Assembly (NCBI GenBank): GCA_963514005.1
Contig: OY740802.1
Span: 7,378,001 to 7,442,000, forward strand
DNA: 64,000 nt
Source of the DNA: Raja brachyura
Lineage: Eukaryota
Direction of reading: 5' to 3'
The notes below the pieces were generated by a model. That model saw nothing but the letters and a program-made list of their open reading frames with translations. It searched no databases and was not told where the DNA came from. Each line of letters begins with the position of its first letter. The first letter of the stretch is position 1. Below are positions 2,191-61,404 of the stretch, in pieces. Made by a program: the position numbers and the translations under genes.

Positions 2191-2691
2191 GAGAAACGCA
2201 GTCAGGAGTTCCATCGAGAGTTTCCCAATGTTCCATTTTTTTCCTGGCAAACAATGAGATATTGGGAGCATCGTGTCACAGTGAGGAGATGCATTGCTGA
2301 TAGATCGTTGTCCTTAATTGAAGCAAGGTTTTTCGGCTGAATGTTAAACGAGGGAGTGCCATCAGGTCAAGAAACAAAAAATGCATTTTAGTCTTTTGGT
2401 TGAAGTGAGGGAACGAGCTTGCAAACAACGTGAGCTACAGCGATCTTTGGGCACATTTATTAAGGCAGCAACTCTACCGCTGCACCACAGTGCTGGGTCA
2501 TTTCCTCCACGGCTGCTGACAGCATAATTCACTCCCATAGTTCCACCACCTGAAAGTTTCTTTGGTTGGCACGTGAAGTTCTCAAAATGGAAGCTTCAGA
2601 CACGGTGCAACTTGGCACTTCTGTCTGAATTTTGCAAACGGTTGAAATCGTGAGAGTTGCTTGAAATGCGTTCTGTTGTGGCCGTCCGCAG

Positions 2692-2902
2692 TTTGCCCAG
2701 GAATTGAAAAGCAAGGCATGGCCATCCTTCAAGCAAGCTTCCACCAAGTTACACCTGTTGACTGGCACTGATTTCTGTCCGGCTAACTGCCACGTTAATG
2801 TCATGGAGGTCTCCTGCCCGAAAAGTACAACCTCTCTTGGAAGATCTTTCAGCATACGGTTTGGCCGAAAAAATTCTTTCCTTGGCTTGGAGCAAGATCA
2901 AG
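2692..2902 (+). CDS. PREX1: PREX1 coding exon (first in window): [15 protein letters not shown]...[45 protein letters not shown]
   Basis: ccgcag acceptor, g|gtacgt donor; translation matches the remembered P-Rex1 segment DFCPTNCHINLMEVSYPK...[11 protein letters not shown]. Upstream exons are outside the window. Confidence 0.93.
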
Positions 2903-3031
2903 GTACGTGAATGGCGTCGGACCAAGGTGTACCGTTAATTTACACTCAATTCTTGCTTAATTTAAAACATTATTGGTAAATTCCACACTGCTGGTTGAAA
3001 GAGGTTTATATGTCTGGAATGGGGAGCATCA

Positions 3032-3271
3032 AGGGCCTGTCACACCTGACGATTTTTTTCGGCGATTGCTGGCGTCATTGACTGATGTATCTGGTCACCG
3101 AAAAATCTGCGGCGTGACGCGGCGCGATGACGTATATTGACGCACGGTGTTCTTTCAAGTGTCGCAACATTTTTTTTGTCGCCGCTGGATTTTGAAATGT
3201 TCAAAATCTTTTGGCGACACTGATATGACACCGGTAGTCGCCGAAAAAAATTGCCAAGTGGGACAAGCCCT
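3032..3271. mobile_element. PIF/Harbinger-type MITE
   Basis: AGGGCCTGTCACAC / GTGGGACAAGCCCT TIRs, flanks TCA/TTA; reverse-complement relative of 62191-62423. Confidence 0.8.
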
Positions 3272-4294
3272 TTACTGACTGGAAGAGGTTGGACAGACTG
3301 GAATATCGGAGGTTGAGGGTTAAGGCTGTATAAAACTGAACGGCACAGATGGGGTAGACAGTCAAAACCAGTTACCCAGGGATATAAATATCAAATACAG
3401 GAGGTGATAGTTTTAAGGTGAGAGGGAAAAAGTTCAAAGGAGATTTGCCGACCAAGTTCTTTTACACAGAGGGAGGTGAATGCTGACGATCAGCCATGAT
3501 CACAATGAATGGCGGTGCTGGCTCGAAGGGCCTCCTCCTACACCTATTTTCTATGTTGCTATGAATGCCTCAAACACGCTAATGGGGCTAGTGGTGGAGG
3601 CAGACACGATAGTGGCATTTAAGAGATTTTCGGAGCAGATTGTGGATATGCAGGGAGTGGAGAGATGTGGATGATGGGCCGTTATGGAAGACATTATCTG
3701 TACATGTGTGAATGTGGGCCTTGCCGTCTGCCTTACCACGTGATAATGACGCACTGGAAACTCATTTTTACGTCCGTTTTGAGAATATTCCACTAAAACC
3801 CTTGACGTGTTCAACTTCCGATGGCAAGTTGTGAGGCAGCGGCTCGTTCGGTATCTGCTCCTTCCACTGCACAAGCCGACCGGCCTATTTTCCGTGGTTT
3901 CCAGAAGCTTCGTTTGAGTTAGCAAAAGGAAGTTCGTAAGTCAGAGGAGCAGAAGGAAGCCATTCGGCCCATCGAGTCTTCATGTTGTACATCAGTGATT
4001 TGAGTGAGGCAATTAAAAGGCCTTGTGGCCAAGTTTGCAGCTGATGTGAAGATAGGTGGAGGGGCAGGTAGTGTAGATGAAGCAGGGACTCTGCAGAACG
4101 ACTTGGACAGGTTGGGAGAGGGCGCGAAGGGGGATGGGTGGGGGTGGTGTCACATTTTCTGGGGGGTGGGATTTTGTGTGGGGGGGCGGGGGGGGGGGGA
4201 GGGGGTGCCTGCCACCGGTGGTGGATCTTAACCTTTATTTGTTGACCAAGTAATACATTGGTGTACACGGCTGAAGTGTCGGATCTGTTTACAG

Positions 4295-12010: not shown

Positions 12011-12231
12011 TTAGGTAGACACAAAATGGGGGGAGTAACTCCGTGGGACAGGCAGCATCTCTGGAGGGACGGAATGGGTGATGTTTCATGTTGAGACCCT
12101 TCTTCAGACGTCTCGACCCGAAACGTCACCCATTCCTTCTCTCCCGAGATGCTGCCTGTCCCGCTGAGTTACTCCAGCATTTTGTGTCTACCTTCCATTG
12201 AAACCAGCACCTGCAATTCTTTCCTACACAT
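12011..12231. mobile_element. Penelope-derived palindromic mini-element (degenerate hammerheads)
   Basis: Inverted arms gtagacacaaaatg.../...cattttgtgtctac; 10-bp TSD atataaatca (12001-12010 / 12232-12241). Confidence 0.75.
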
Positions 12232-13169
12232 ATATAAATCACTCTCTGAGAGATGCTGATTTATTGATAAAATAATAGATGAGTGCTCTCAATCTTGACT
12301 GTAGGCCTGCAGCCTTGCAGATTATCAACAGTACTTTGCCTAGGATGTAAGGGATGTTATTAGCTTTTAAATAGACCAATTGGTACCTGTAATCATAAAT
12401 ATTTTACCAAAAGCATTGAAAGTCATAGAATCATACAACATGGAAACAAGCCCTTCGGCCTAACTTGCCCACGCCGACCAACATGCCCCATCTACACTAG
12501 TCCCACCTTTCTGTGTTTGGCCCATATCCCTTCAAACCTATCCTATCCATCGCCTGTCTAAATGCCTCTTAAATGTTCCAATAGTATCTGCCTCGGCTTC
12601 CTCCATCAGCAGCTCGTTCCATACACCCACCGGCCTTTGTGTAAAAAATAAAGTTACCCCTCAGGTTCCTATTAAACCTTTCCCCCCCTTACCTTAAACC
12701 TATGTCCTCTGGTTCTCGATTCCCCCTTACTCTGTGCAAAAGACTCTGTACATCTACCCGCCTATTCCTCTCAAAATTTCTAACCTCTATAAGATTACCT
12801 CTCATCCCCCTGCGCTCCAAGGAATAGACTCCTAGTGACTGATGATTAATGAATAAAGGCGGATGTCTAAAATAAATCGTATGTCCCTAGAATCTGTTGG
12901 TGAGACTTATTGTGACCTGATTGCATTTAATCTGGTAAATTAAAAATATTACTTAGTATTTATAAAGTATCTCTTTCCTGGGGCTATATATGGTGGTTAG
13001 TTCTTCGAGAAAGAGTATTTTATGCATTGTGTGCCATGGATTTAATTATCTGCTTCCAGTCTTGTTTAAAACAACACCCTAAAGATACAAAGAGAAGACA
13101 CAAAGTGCTGGAGTAACTCAGCGCATCAGGTAGCATCTCTGGAGAACATGTGCATGTGTTGTTCCCCCT

Positions 13170-13716
13170 TCTGATTGTGGACTTTGGAAGGAGTAGGATG
13201 GGGACCCACAGTCCCGTTTATATCAACGGGTCGATGGTTGAAAGGGTCAAGAGCTTCAAATTCCTGGGCGTGCACATCTCTGAAGATCTTTCCTGGTCCG
13301 AGAACACAGATGCAATTATTAAGAAAGCTCATCTGCGCCTCTACTTCCTGAGAAGATTACGGAGAGTTGGTCTGTCAAGGAGGAGTCTCTCTAACTTCTA
13401 CAGGTGCACAGTAGAGAGCTTGCTGACCGGTTGCATCGTGACTTGGTTCGGCAACTTGAGTGCCCTGGAGAGGAAAAGACTACAAAAAGTAGTAAACACT
13501 GCCCAGTCCATCATCGGCTCTGACCTTCCTTCCATCGAGGGGATCTACCACAGTCGCTGCCTCAAAAAGGCTGGCAGCATCATCAAGGACCCACACCACC
13601 CTGGCCACACACTCATCTCCCTGCTACCTTCAGGTAGAAGGAACAGGAGCCTGAGGACTGCAATGACCCGGTTCAAGAATAGCTACTTCCCCACAGCCAT
13701 CAGGCTATTAAACTAA
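13170..13716 (+). mobile_element. Rex1/Babar-type LINE 3' ORF fragment inserted in a Penelope mini-element
   Basis: LIVDFGR...[14 protein letters not shown]...LRRLRR...AIRLLN, near-identical to 59098-59604. Confidence 0.9.
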
Positions 13717-17254: not shown

Positions 17255-17920
17255 CATGTTGCCAGGCCTGAACAGCACCTTGCGAACCATCACTGGGGGC
17301 CTTCACCCTACTCCAGTCGAGCAGCTCCCTATACTTGCAGACATTCCGCCTGCAGGGATCTGAAGGCAAGCAGCAACTCTGGCACTATCTCGTCGTGCCA
17401 TGGACCCAGAGCACCTCCTCCATCGGGCTATCAGCAGAGAGCAGAGGCCACCCCGACTGAAGTCCCGTCACCCCTTTGCTCCACATGGGAAACAATTCCT
17501 CGCATCCATCCAGCCAACTGAGACAAAAGCACACTGGACAGCCACCAAGTGGTCACAGGAGTGGAAGGCAACCTCATCTCCATTACACAGCGACATCTCT
17601 TCACCAGATAAAAGCTGTCCAGGGTCTGACCTCCCCAGAGGAGCGTGGGTGAAGCTCAACAGACTTGGTACTGGAGTTGGGCGTTTCGACGCCAGCATGT
17701 GGAGATGGGGTCTCTGCCAGAGCCCAGCCTGTGAATGCAGAGCAGAACAACAGACAACCAACCATGTCATCTCTGGGTGCCCGCTCTACCACCCACCAAA
17801 TGGAGCTCAGGGCCTGGCAGACATTGTCGCCAACAGAGACAACAACCTGGCTGCTCAACACCCGGCTTGAGATCTAACTATTCCTTGGGTTTATGTTTCA
17901 TTCGCAAGAAGAAGAAGAAG
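17255..17920 (+). mobile_element. Vingi/Ingi-like LINE 3' fragment
   Basis: [12 protein letters not shown]...RLKSRHPF...WVKLNRLGTGVGRF...CEC...QTTNHVISGCP zinc knuckle; internal stop; ends cattcgc(aag)n. Confidence 0.7.
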
Positions 17921-55230: not shown

Positions 55231-55456
55231 AGTGTTAAAGAAGGAACTGCAGATGCTGGAGAATCGAGGGTTACACAAAAGGCTGGAGAAACTCAGCGGG
55301 TGCAGCAGCATCTAAGGAGCGAAGGAGATAGGCGACGTTTCGGGTCGAGACCCTTCTTCAGACGTCTGAAGAAGGGTCTCGACCCGAAACGTCGCCTATC
55401 TCCATCGCTCCTTAGATGCTGCTGCACCCGCTGAATTTCTCCAGCCTTTTGTGTAC
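55231..55456. mobile_element. Penelope-derived palindromic mini-element with two opposed hammerhead cores
   Basis: 92-bp inverted arms (55272-55455), CTGAAGA-AGGGTCTCGACCC-GAAACGTC on both strands, 13-bp TSD catggattaatga (55218-55230 / 55457-55469). Confidence 0.85.
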
Positions 55457-56001
55457 CATGGATTAATGAGCCTGTCGCATTTATTGGGGACAATTATGTT
55501 CAATAGTCACAGGAGCCGAAGTAGGCCATTCGGCCCATCGGGTCTACTCCTCCATTCAATCATGGCTGATCTATCTTTCCCTATCAACTTCATTCTCCTG
55601 CCTTCTCCCCATAACACTTGACACCGATGCTACAGTAGTTGCTCTACTCAACAGCCAAAAATCTGTAGCCTAGCTTTGATCTGTTTTTTTCTTGATTCAC
55701 ATGCTTGATCAATGGTGTTTTATCATTAATGTTTTATTATTATTAATGTTTAGTATTTTCTGAGTCAATTGTAACTGTCACTGTAAACTTGGTACTAAAT
55801 GAATAGTGAATATAGACTGAACTAAATAAATGCAAGATGCAAATCTGAGTAGAATCGCAGAGGTACTCAGCACAGAAACAGGCCCTTCAGCCCTACTCAT
55901 CCATGCTAGCTGAGATGTCCCATCTACGCTAGTCCCATTTTCCTGCGTTTGGCCCATATCCCTCTTAACCATTCCCAATGAACTTTAAATGAACTGATTT
56001 A

Positions 56002-56111
56002 CGCCTGTTTCGACTAAAGCAATCAACCCGGCGTGCACAATCAAATAAGGTCAAATAGAACAAGTTGTCTTCCAACTTTAGGCTGTGCACGCCACATGCA
56101 AGGAGGAGAAG
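56002..56111 (+). mobile_element. 5'-truncated copy of the HDV-headed short element
   Basis: cgcctgtttcgactaaagcaatcaac...tcaaatagaacaagttgtc...aactttaggctgtgcacgccac aligns with 60533-60636. Confidence 0.8.
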
Positions 56112-56954: not shown

Positions 56955-57413
56955 GTCAAAGTCAAAGTCAAAAGAGTTTATTGTCATGTGTCCCTGACAG
57001 GACAATGAAAATCTTGAACATAGTAGGCATTGACTACAATTATATACGTAAATACACCCATGAATTAATAAATTAATAAAGTGCAAATAACAGATGGAGG
57101 GATATTAATGTTCAGAGTTCCGAGCCAGGTTTAATAGTCTGATGGCTGTGGGGAAGTAGCTATTCCTAAACCGGGTTGTTGCAGTCTTCAGGCTCCTGTA
57201 CCTTCTACCCGAAGGTAGTGTGTGGCCAGGGTGGTGTGGGTCCTTGATGAAACTGCCAGCCTTTTTGAGGCAGCAACTGCGATAGATCCCCTCGATGGAA
57301 GGAAGGTCAGAGCCGATGATGGACTGGGCAGTGTTTACTACTTTTTGTAGTCTTTTCCTCTCCAGGGCACTCAAGTTGCCGAACCAAGCCACGATGCAAC
57401 CGGTCAGCAAGCT
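56955..57413 (-). mobile_element. Rex1/Babar-type LINE 3' fragment
   Basis: ESLLTGCIVAWFGNLSALERKRLQKVV on the minus strand with (TTTGAC)n-like tail. Confidence 0.85.
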
Positions 57414-57780
57414 CTCTTGGTTGGTTAAAGCCTGGGTTTTCATGAGTGGTGTAGAAGACACAGACTGCTGGAGTAGCTCAGCGGGTCAGGCAGCATCTCC
57501 AGAGAAAAGGAATAGGTGACGTTTTGTGTCGAGACCCTTCTTCGGACTGAGAGTCGGGGACGTAAGATATCGGTAAATAGAACGGATGAATGTAAGATAT
57601 GCACTAAGCATTGAAGAGTGTCTTTAACATTATTTGAGTTTGATAAAGAGTTTAAAGTCGCAAATGGGCCAACTGTGATTCTCGATGCTACTCTGAAAAT
57701 CCACTGGACTAGTCCAGTAAGGCTAGTCCATGAAGTGAGAATCTTGCATCTAGGATAATAATGTCACAAATTGCGCCTAA

Positions 57781-59884
57781 TGGGCCTGTCCCACTTCGGA
57801 GACTGCAGGAGACTCTGCGGTCGCCACATGTTTGCCACGTGTTTGCGGGTGGTTGCCGGGGAGTCGCCTTCATGGTCGTGAGGAGTCGCCGCATTCTGGG
57901 AACTAGTCGCGGCCTCATTATGGTCGCCGCAAATTTATCAACATGTTGAAAAATTAGCGGCGACCAGAATGAAGCCGCCATGGAGAGCAGCGAGGTCCTA
58001 GTGTGTTGCCGGGAGGTCGAAGGTTTTCGTAGGTTCTCGTAGGTTGTGGCCGGTGCTGACCGGTGAATTTCATTGGCTCATTGGGGAAAAAAAGACAAGC
58101 AGTAGTTTTCAGAATCAAGGATAACCGACCGGTAATGTTAATGTCCGCTGAGCTTCACAGCCGTGTATCTCTGGCTTCTTAAAAGTTGTCTCCACTCCTT
58201 CTTCCCCCTTCTCTCCCCTTCTTCCTCCCCCCCCTTATAAAGGACTTACCGTACACTGTGCTTTAGCCATCTTAATTACAGCTCCAACCTTCCTGTTCAT
58301 CACGGTGTGTGTCTGTATCACATAGGCTTTGCACCGTGGGAATTTCACTCAGACAGCGCTCCCCCCCCCCCCCCCCCCGCTTGCCCTGTCCCCCACCTGC
58401 ATAACGGGCTGGTGAAGGAAGCGATGTGTGCGTGTGTGTGCGTGTTCCACTCTGACAGTCGCTGTTCCAGTTGCCGGTTTTTCAGGCGACTGCCGGCAAC
58501 TTGTAGCACTAACGCCTGTGGTGATGAAGTGCTTCGGGAGGTTGATCATGGCACAAATCAACTCCTACCTCGAAAAAAAACCTGGACCCACTGTAGTTCG
58601 CTTACCGCCACAACAGATCAACGGTGGACGCGATCTCACTGGCTCTCCACTCCGCTGTGGACCACTTGGACAACAAAAACTCATATGTCAGGCTGTTATT
58701 CATCGATTACAGCTCGGCATTTAATACTATCATCCCCTCCAAGCTGGTTACCAAACTCGCAGAACTGGGTCTCTGCGCATCCCTCTGCGATTGGATCCTC
58801 GACTTCCTCATTCACAGACCACAGTCTGTTCGTATTGGTGGAAATGTGTCAGACTCGATAACAATCAGCAAGGGAGCACCTCAAGGCTGCGTGCTCAGCA
58901 CCCTGATGTACTCACTCTATACTCATGACTGCGTAGCCGGTCATAGCGCGAATTCCATCATCAAGTTCGCTGTAGACACCACTATTGTGGGACGTATCAC
59001 TGATGGGGATGAGTCAGAGTATAGAAGAGAGATCGAGCGACTGTCCATATGGTGCCAGCACAATAACCTGGCCCTCAACACCAGCAAAACCAAGGAACTG
59101 ATTGTGGACTTTGGAAGGCATAGGATGGTTGAAAGGGTCAAGAGCTTCAAATTCCTGGGCGTGCACATCTCTGAAGATGTTTCCTAGTCTGAGAACACTG
59201 ATGCAATTATTAACAAAGCTCATCAGCGCCTCTACTTCCTGAGAAGATTACGGAGAGTCGGTTTGTCAAGGAGGACTCTCTCTAACTTCTACAGGTGCAC
59301 AGTAGAGAGCCTGCTGACCGGTTGCATCGTGGCTTGGTTCGGCAACTTGAGTGCCCTGGAGAGGAAAAGACTACAAAAAGTAGTAAACACTGCCCAGTCC
59401 ATCATCGGCTCTGACCTCCCTTCCATCGAGGGGATCTATCGCAGTCGCTGCCTCAAAAAGGCTGGCAGCATCATCAAGGACCCACACCATCCTGGCCACA
59501 CACTCATCTCCCTGCTACCTTCAGGTAGAAGGTACAGGAGCCTGAAGACTGCAACGACCAGGTTCAGGAATAGCTACTTCCCCACAACCATCAGGCTATT
59601 AAACTTGGCTCGGACAAAACTCTGATAAAACTCTGACAAAACTAATAACCCATTATCTGTTATTTGCACTTTATCAGTTTATTTATTCATGTGTGTATAA
59701 AATTAAATAATGGTATATGGACACACTGATCTGTTCTGTAGTCAATGCCTACTATGTTCTGTTGTGCTGAAGCCAAGCAAGAATTTCATTGTCCTGTCAG
59801 GGACACACGACAATAAACTCTCTTGGACTTGAACTTGACAGTCGCCGACAATTTGCTGAAAAATCACCTAGTGGGACAGGCCTA
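57781..59884. mobile_element. PIF/Harbinger-type MITE containing a nested Rex1/Babar LINE
   Basis: TAA|TGGGCCTGTCCCACT...AGTGGGACAGGCCTA; right TSD not conserved. Confidence 0.7.
58504..59837 (+). mobile_element. Rex1/Babar-type LINE, 5'-truncated, disrupted reverse transcriptase
   Basis: VALTPVVMKCF...[16 protein letters not shown]...GAPQGCVLS...KFAVDT...LSNFYRCTVESLLTGCIVAWFGN; 3' UTR ending caataaactctcttggacttgaacttg. Confidence 0.92.
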
Positions 59885-60502
59885 GTACTGTTGTGCATTA
59901 AATAAGCCAATATATCCCTCAAAGAGAGAGTGCAAAGAGGCAAATGTCTCTGATGAAGTAATAATTGGCTCTATTTTAGAATATTGTATTGTGTTTAGTG
60001 CTTATATGTCTGAAAGGAAATTCATGCAGAAAATTAAATGCAGCCACTTCAAAGACTCAGATTGCTTTATTGAATGTCAGGGAGCAAACTGATCTTTGTT
60101 ATGAAATGTATTGAGCAGGGAGTAGGAACATTTGTGTTTCAAGTATTTTAAGAAAGAGAATAAAATGGAAGTTCATAGTTTTTTTCTATATTATGGTTGA
60201 ACACTCTTGGGTGTGTATATATAGATTGAAACACAGTGCCGCATGTCTGCACAGTTTTGTTTAAAGTCTACGTTAAATAGCAATTGACAAACCTTTCAAA
60301 CTTCGCGGATTTAATGATTTATTCAGCACTTTAGATCAGGTAAAAGGAGAGATGAACACTTAACACAAGGCGGACACAAAATGCTGGATTAACTCAACGG
60401 GACGGGCAGCATCTCTGGTGAGACGTTTTGGGTCGAGACCCGAAGTCTGAAGAAGGGTCTCGACCCGAAACGTCACTCGTTCCTTCTCTCCAGAGATGCT
60501 GC

Positions 60503-60556
60503 GGGGTGGAAGATTGCAACCTTCACGTGGTCCGCCCAGTTTCGACTAATGCAATC
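60503..60556 (+). ncRNA. Minimal HDV-like (CPEB3-type) self-cleaving ribozyme motif
   Basis: P1 GGGGUGG/CCGCCCA, P2 GAUUGCA/UGCAAUC, P3 ACC/GGU, L3 UUCACGU, then GU, vestigial P4 (UUCGA), J4/2 CUAA, all in correct nested-pseudoknot order. Confidence 0.8.
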
Positions 60557-60636
60557 AACTCGACGTGCAGAAACGGAAGATCAAATAGAACAAGTTGTCC
60601 AACAACTTTAGGCTGTGCACGCCACACGAAAGCAGA
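60503..60636 (+). mobile_element. Short non-autonomous retroelement (HDV-ribozyme head, Vingi-like tail)
   Basis: TSD agagatgctgc (60492-60502) / agagacgctgc (60637-60647); degenerate (AAG)n tail; second copy at 56002-56111. Confidence 0.75.
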
Positions 60637-61404
60637 AGAGACGCTGCCTGTCCCGCTGAGTTCAAAAAGAACATTTGGCAGTGTATTTGATGTATTTTGT
60701 GTTCCAAGTACAGCAAAACTGATTGTCAGTAATGAATTAAAGAATTAAGCATCAAGGTAAGAACTTCAACTGAGGTGTTTTGCTCGAGAGGTGAAGCTGG
60801 GGACTTGGATTGACTGTCAAATGGATTCACAAGTTCACAAGTTGTAGGAGTAGAATTAGGCCATTCGGCCCATCGAGTCTCCGCCATTCAATCATGCCTG
60901 ACCTCTGCTTCCTAATCCCATTTTCCTGCCTTCTCACCTTAACCCTTGACCCCCCCTCCCCATTCTAATCAAGAATTCATGCGCGTAAAAATGGAGGAAA
61001 AGAAGGCTTTATTTTCTGGAAGGTAGACAAAAATGCTGGAGAAACTCAGCGGGTGAGGCAGCACCTATGCAGTGAAGAAAATAGGCTACGCTTTGGTTCC
61101 AGACCCTTCTTCAGACCCTTTCTTTTCTGGACCTGGCTGTTTGGGTTCTTGTGCATTGTAGAAGAATGGGTAATTGTTGTTGTCAGATAAATATTGAAAC
61201 ACCGTAAGAATTTGTACAGCTACAGGTAATGTGCATGCAATTCTTGAAATATTCATAAACAGAATGTGTGTACATCAAAATGTCCACAGATTAAAAAGAC
61301 AGCTTGGTGTTGGACGATCAGGTTGCCACTGTGTTTGCCTTTGGCTTCATCAGTTATCGAGTCTGGTTCGAGTCAGGTACATAGAGCATGGCGCTGGTAC
61401 ATGG

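Follow-up and report, generated by a model that had tools for sequence, protein, structure and literature searches.

The 134-bp element at positions 60503–60636 is an internal-deletion derivative of a ~3.1-kb single-ORF LINE and thus a bipartite, non-autonomous retroelement of the SIDE type. It lies in a 64,000-nucleotide stretch of Raja brachyura DNA, here called the window. In our preferred explanation, which has good confidence, the 5′ 72 nt and the 3′ ~35 nt of one LINE family (family D) were joined to form it, its head is a predicted HDV-like ribozyme which lacks the P4 stem and is likely to self-cleave, and the element would be copied by the LINE protein. The features on which this account draws are given below in window coordinates; assignments were made by inspection of the sequence except where another basis is named.

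60391–60662 (palindrome, no strand), host repeat split by the element, with arms at 60391–60416 and 60637–60662
60492–60502 (+), left TSD, 11 bp, with C at −1
60503–60636 (+), the element, with a decayed (AAG)n tail at its end
60503–60556 (+), putative HDV-like ribozyme, 54 nt, P4 stem absent (sequence, alignment and descriptor)
60503–60509 and 60532–60538 (+), ribozyme P1
60512–60518 and 60550–60556 (+), ribozyme P2
60519–60521 and 60529–60531 (+), ribozyme P3, closing L3 at 60522–60528
60524 and 60539 (+), P1.1, the single pair C60524–G60539
60526–60529 (+), CGTG at +24 to +27, candidate promoter motif (the Pr77 DPE is CGTG at +25 to +28; PMC4748587)
60538 (+), A where the family has U opposite G1 (exact-pattern counts)
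60539–60540 (+), G-U, followed by the L4 remnant of 5 unpaired nt at 60541–60545
60546–60549 (+), J4/2, C-U-A-A
60546 (+), putative catalytic C, equivalent to C75 (majority base C in all six families aligned)
60549–60551 (+), AUG over the last A of J4/2 and the start of the P2 3′ strand, in frame with the ORF in the parent LINE
60557–60574 (+), remaining parent-derived 5′ segment, element nt 55–72 (match to family D)
60575–60601 (+), junction region with no parent match, comprising a partial local duplication and the 5′ strand of a 7-bp hairpin
60592–60598 and 60602–60608 (+), 7-bp hairpin at the junction
60602–60629 (+), parent-derived 3′ end: last codons, parent stop codon at 60609–60611 and a short 3′ UTR
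60630–60636 (+), degenerate (AAG)n tail, the same tail as in LINE families A–E
60637–60647 (+), right TSD, one mismatch to the left TSD
56002–56110 (+), 5′-truncated copy of the other short subfamily, beginning at about element nt 31
17263–17918 (+), 5′-truncated 3′ fragment from sister LINE family A; its (AAG)n tail is that of the element

An initial annotation of this DNA had given the HDV segments in their order with coordinates, had described an 11-bp TSD with one mismatch and an (AAG)n tail, and had noted the lack of a tRNA, 7SL or 5S head. Every segment and both boundaries proved to lie where they had been placed. ARAGORN finds no tRNA in 60000–61000 and Rfam gives no match to a small cellular RNA of the kind that heads SINEs; the head derives from the 5′ end of the LINE itself. 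The insertion is also evident from its empty site, as in three of four public runs (one run possibly being the window's own source) contigs pass from 60502 directly into the host repeat. In a run coded as another organism, 244 contigs stop aligning just 5′ of 60503 and have unrelated flanks. Palindromic MITE-like repeats are abundant in the window, at 12013–12193, 33245–33411 and 55262–55464 in addition to the one that was split, and one such repeat gives a sub-threshold match to MIR1858 in Rfam.

The fragment at 17263–17918 provided the lead to the parent, and families A–E were gathered by genome searches with proteins from it; a Pfam search with the C-terminal piece of family A gave no match. 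Nucleotides 1–72 of the element match the 5′ ends of family D at 84–92% and nt 100–134 match its 3′ ends, with nt 107–109 being the stop codon of the family D ORF. Both ends are found together in single family D copies (L279 and L280). In L280 they lie ~3.1 kb apart, and the intervening ORF aligns to residues 19–1019 of P0001, an intact relative of 1019 aa with APE and RT domains. Further family D deletion derivatives, several hundred bp long, also retain both ends. Two other candidates were set aside. Family A shares the tail with the element, not the ends, and is a sister family; a second match in L010, considered as the parent 3′ end, is a truncated short copy, and a search with it gave another repeat.

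The element had first been read as a SINE-like family, but it is no orphan SINE, since both of its ends belong to family D. The same observation refutes an independent SINE whose head would be a captured cellular CPEB3-type ribozyme and which gained a LINE tail, a scenario to which we assign a vanishingly small probability. Such a capture would account for an L3 identical to the Rfam CPEB3 consensus and for the lack of a parent match over nt 73–99. The head, however, shares 47 of 49 core positions with the 5′ end of the parent LINE, the match runs on into the parent's 5′ region, and the Rfam CPEB3 model (RF00622) gives the element no score: it falls below the 35-bit cut-off, with no match at E≤10 in 60480–60660.

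Non-CpG divergence over nt 13–54 amounts to 8/332 in family D and to 21/803 and 25/743 in the two short subfamilies, and this similarity places the activity of parent and derivative in the same period. From the shared ends and the similar age, we infer that the element is mobilised in trans by the parent's protein. The parent clade appears to be Vingi-type, a name based on an architecture that RTE also has and on terminal motifs of the I group: the C-terminal Cys/His motif and the N-terminal motifs of the parent protein presumably fit that group. A single ORF with APE and RT, a length of about 3.1 kb, and no RNase H (no RNase H family match at E≤1 in P0001, P0009 or P0014) agree with the definition of Vingi as a single ORF with APE and RT and without RNase H (PMC13708176). 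Bipartite non-autonomous LINEs are known, according to PMC5786205, from RTE, Ingi, Vingi and R2.

The family D copy in L239 carries a long open reading frame for a CR1/L2-type RT, inserted at about 2520–4070, and that in L241 a processed insert at about 2650–3230, which we take from its translation to be ferritin-like. Inverted segments resembling the products of twin priming occur in copies L068/L069, L073, L265, L286, L289, L306, L316 and L319. Fragments of a more distant LINE RT family are present in the window at 58597–59625, 13117–13716 and 57105–57485 (RVT_1 and ALKBH8_N matches).

The short element is abundant, and its 5′ end is fixed. Exact-pattern searches of the genome gave 3792, 4804 and 5171 matches, and reversed control patterns gave none. 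Corrected for the fraction of sampled copies with an exact match (8/30 and 11/70), these counts point to about 18,000 and about 33,000 copies; incidental occurrences (14 in 0.98 Mb, or 10 after dropping 4 tied to selected copies) lead to about 28,000. Overall, the family numbers roughly 20,000–30,000 copies. The initial annotation had expected full-length copies to start at G1 rather than at scattered positions, and they do. Among copies selected by their 3′ end (the first 70 of 4804, all on a single contig, with a few segmental duplicates among them), the alignment begins at nt 1 in 55 and at nt 1–3 in 58, while 12 begin at nt 13 or later. A TSD is detectable in 88 of 112 full-length copies, and none was detected in 24. 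TSD lengths range over 6–15 bp, mostly 8–13, and relative to G1 the TSD abuts in 39 copies, overlaps by 1–3 nt in 29 and leaves 1–6 extra nt in 20. Long 5′ transductions were not seen among the 112 copies. The TSDs, the tail, the 5′ truncations and the many loci support amplification by TPRT, and together these data support a TPRT-type family with a 5′ start fixed at G1.

A capped RNA template is expected to leave an extra G at the 5′ end, as is known from work on L1. The single extra 5′ bases here are T in six copies, C in three and G in one, so there is no cap-G signature. This count bears on a different explanation for the fixed start, namely that G1 is set mainly by an internal Pol II promoter of the Pr77-like, DPE type within the first ~50 bp, the ribozyme being secondary or serving to trim read-through transcripts. 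Pr77 of L1Tc/NARTc is described as both a promoter and a ribozyme, in which CGTG at +25 to +28 is essential (PMC4748587); the element and, at the L3/P3 border, families A and C carry the same motif, and a fixed 5′ end would equally be expected from an internal promoter. Families B and E, however, lack CGTG there and keep the fold, so the motif can be explained by structural constraints on L3/P3. The scarcity of extra G, as well as the compensatory changes described below, which point to selection on RNA structure, also speaks against a mainly promoter-defined start, and we regard it as unlikely. The two functions can coexist, and given the Pr77-like CGTG, the description of the family as promoter-less is unproven.

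The HDV fold itself is supported by compensatory changes, including P1.1, across five LINE families. The element contains P1, P2, P3 and P1.1 in the nested double-pseudoknot order. The heads of families A–E are only 20–31/49 identical between families, and their stems pair at 82 of 85 positions versus 208 of 340 when the 3′ strands are swapped between families, a comparison that ignores relatedness; covariation of this kind had been anticipated for P1, P2 and P3. The majority stems were built from 6 copies of A, 3 of B, 2 of C and 9 each of D and E, with segments anchored by hand, and the three non-pairing positions come from the poorly sampled family C and the 5′-truncated family E. P1.1 is C-G in four of the families and U-A in B. 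All six sets (A–E and the short element) retain U20/G25 and the C-N-R-A junction. The first P1 pair is unresolved in C and E, kept in the other families and broken in the window copy. At the level of individual copies, 45/46 of one short subfamily and 25/27 of the other have the catalytic C, the remainder being C>T at a CpG-prone site. Within the short family there is little stem variation.

An HDV descriptor, written after the element had been seen, matches the window once, at the element, and finds nothing in 30 doublet-shuffled windows. Of the Rfam models, HDV-F-prausnitzii aligns to exactly 60503–60556, but weakly, its 12.9 bits lying far below the cut-off of 44, and CPEB3 gives no match. 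With ViennaRNA, which cannot fold pseudoknots, the minimum-energy structure of the whole element differs from the HDV fold, and an alternative mini-hairpin seen in the sequence, G-U-[UUCG]-A-C, could sequester G37 and the catalytic C.

The base preceding the element was also considered. T occupies −1 in 37 of 77 full-length copies, compared to a background of 28% (p=1.6e-4), and A is depleted (7/77). For the HDV ribozyme, U-1 is reported as the most active base (PMC1874588). The order here is T>C>G>A versus the HDV order U>C>A>G, and the T bias may be due to endonuclease preference or to untemplated bases.

The P4 region measures 18–40 nt in four of the families (A, B, C and E) and is reduced to 5 nt in D and likewise in the short element; the remnant is inherited from D and is therefore no sign of selection in the short element. 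Within the ribozyme, D and the short subfamilies differ in J1/2, in one P1 pair (U-A to U-G) and in the base after the catalytic C. A P4 reduced to 5 nt would be in keeping with a fold that is retained as a structural 5′ module, for nuclease resistance, protein binding or translation start, and that cleaves little or not at all in its P4-less form. The in-frame AUG at the J4/2–P2 border in A, B and D places a second constraint on the region, and in engineered R2 templates, stable HDV folds are reported to protect much as a cap does (PMC13708176). A purely structural role would not, however, predict that the catalytic C and U20/G25 are kept in every family, along with the G1 pair save in the unresolved C and E; minimal phage HDV ribozymes without P4 do cleave (PMC10879173), and the starts of the element coincide with the predicted cleavage site. 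We consider the structural-module explanation improbable, more so than the internal promoter.

Two short subfamilies exist, with their main differences at nt 45, 58–61, 71–74 and 123–127. A 20-codon mini-ORF running from the embedded AUG to the parent stop is intact in one and broken in the other, and was treated as chance. The state typical of the family is U opposite G1 (5171 exact matches with T versus 271 with A, C or G), and the A of the window copy is a minority state that most likely arose by a change after insertion. By hand count, the first 100 of the 271 non-T matches include 33 with A and 13 with G, an excess behind which there may be a small sub-lineage with A opposite G1 or a mutation bias. 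A separate subfamily defined by this A was rejected: the enrichment of A among the best matches stems from the query, and the A is unlinked to the copy's other private changes. The suspicion voiced in the initial annotation that the window copy may be weakened is borne out insofar as the copy, with its G1-A mismatch, reads as a decayed insertion that would probably cleave poorly. The copy at 56002 had been put forward as one that keeps the U. It does, but it has lost the 5′ strands of P1, P2 and P3 as well as L3, and it has a substitution in the P2 3′ strand; missing the first ~30 nt of the ribozyme, it is incapable of the fold.

The mechanism that we propose would begin with transcription from upstream host sequence, from an internal promoter, or both. 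The RNA would fold into the double pseudoknot and cleave itself 5′ of G1, leaving a 5′-OH end, and the folded ribozyme could then shield the uncapped 5′ end. The 3′ hairpins and the (AAG)n tail would be recognised in trans by a D-type APE-RT protein, leading to TPRT. The cleavage step is modelled on L1Tc/NARTc and on the R2 SIDEs; the NARTc and R2 SIDE ribozymes are reported to cleave in vitro (PMC4035085, PMC3414825).

The parent families suggest a further role for the 3′ part of the ribozyme. In A, B and D, the last A of J4/2 and the first two bases of the P2 3′ strand form an AUG in frame with the ORF (L215, L206, L224, L236, L245, L248), which in A and B is the sole in-frame AUG upstream of the endonuclease motif. 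In D it overlaps a stop codon, a stop-start motif that presumably resembles that of SART1. Family C has ACG at this site, and in family E the AUG comes later. A start codon embedded in the ribozyme fits with cap-independent initiation on the cleaved RNA, for which Ruminski 2011 is cited elsewhere.

The class of element is already known; the variant described here combines a P4-less head with a length of 134 bp and a copy number in the tens of thousands. The closest parallels are NARTc/L1Tc and RIME/ingi, which, like the element, pair an Ingi-group LINE with a non-autonomous derivative made of its 5′ and 3′ parts (PMC4035085, PMC4748587). Pr77 likewise is a ribozyme of the HDV-like type located at the extreme 5′ end with CGTG near +25, although it is 77 nt long versus 54 nt for the predicted, P4-less ribozyme here. 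The present case also differs from the trypanosome elements in its 134-bp length, its tens of thousands of dispersed copies, its 2.7-Gb animal genome, and a parent without RNase H. The R2 SIDEs and R2/R1 SIDEs of Drosophila, as described in PMC3414825, again consist of a ribozyme and a 3′ end mobilised in trans, and the loss of the parent's J4/2 stop codon in one short subfamily has its counterpart in them. They are site-specific to rDNA, rare, several hundred bp long and equipped with a large J1/2 loop, whereas the element is dispersed, tiny and very abundant, and has an APE-type parent. The derivatives of Vingi-1_EE (Kojima 2011, cited by PMC5786205 and PMC4494074) arose in the same way, from a single-ORF APE-RT element of ~3.1 kb that lost internal sequence, and several deletion derivatives exist side by side, as they do here; in our data, all seven Vingi-type families examined begin with an HDV-like fold.

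Theta ribozymes, as characterised in PMC10879173, resemble the element in lacking P4, in their short J1/2 and L4, and in having the catalytic C first in J4/2. They are, by the same account, confined almost entirely to gut phages, lie beside tRNAs, and did not appear in the eukaryotic genomes searched there. The fold described here heads a retroelement, with no tRNA at the cleavage site and outside any phage genome, and a phage collection compared with the element gave matches at chance level only. Finally, the mammalian CPEB3 ribozyme (RF00622; PMC8233481) has the same L3, the same single C-G P1.1 with an adjacent U-U, and a G1-U pair, while its stems are unrelated and it has the P4 that the element lacks. 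The description of the head as CPEB3-like is therefore apt for L3, P1.1 and the core, but does not extend to the stems or to the Rfam CPEB3 model.

The model does score the heads of sister families. The head of family E scores on it, and in a genome search with RF00622, 32 of the 41 matches listed lie above the 35-bit cut-off, the best among them at 65.8 bits; 14 control genomes gave none. The best 20 of these 41 listed matches all belong to families E, F or G (L303–L322, e.g., L308, L306 and L307; L293–L299). The family F head continues into a Vingi-type ORF. That of family G adjoins inverted ORF pieces in three of five loci, so its LINE linkage is less direct. By hand count, the G copy L308 agrees with the Rfam CPEB3 consensus at 53 of 60 positions from nt 5 to the end, with the P4 stem included and the L4 loop omitted; by comparison, families A–E agree with one another at 20–31 of 49. 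In a rough RT phylogeny, E, F and G group as a single clade with a support of 0.974, separate from D and from A/B/C; family F is represented there by 88 residues only, and decayed copies enter with X at stops. Short internal-deletion derivatives occur in the CPEB3-like families as well, in L291 and L301 (E) and L322 (F), each consisting of the ribozyme, the 3′ end and the (AAG)n tail, which suggests that miniaturisation arose independently in E and F.

Repbase, according to PMC5753468, lists a trace of Vingi in the human genome. On the basis of these sequence comparisons, the mammalian CPEB3 ribozyme is likely a domesticated Vingi-type 5′ end, such descent being the simplest reading, although the resemblance may have come about through convergence or horizontal transfer. 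Taken together, we think there is a reasonable, though by no means overwhelming, case that HDV-like heads, from P4-less 54-nt forms to CPEB3-like ones, are standard on Vingi-type LINEs, that the CPEB3 ribozyme is a domesticated insertion of the E/F/G subclade, and that in several families a start codon lies in the catalytic strand. The literature search turned up no article that connects Vingi with HDV ribozymes or CPEB3; its scope did not extend to Repbase and Dfam, to subscription journals or to supplements, any of which may already name the family.

If the element cleaves, a ribozyme form known almost only from gut phages (PMC10879173) stands at the 5′ end of a retroelement that is among the smallest and most abundant of the non-autonomous kind, and there would be thousands of potential self-cleavage sites across an animal genome. 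With its 134 nt, the element would also represent a naturally occurring minimal template for a protein of the Vingi type, and proteins of this type are now employed for RNA-based gene insertion (PMC13708176). If the proposed origin of the CPEB3 ribozyme is true, the E/F/G subclade would supply an outgroup previously missing from the CPEB3 ribozyme literature, and these sister families turn the origin of that ribozyme into a testable question.
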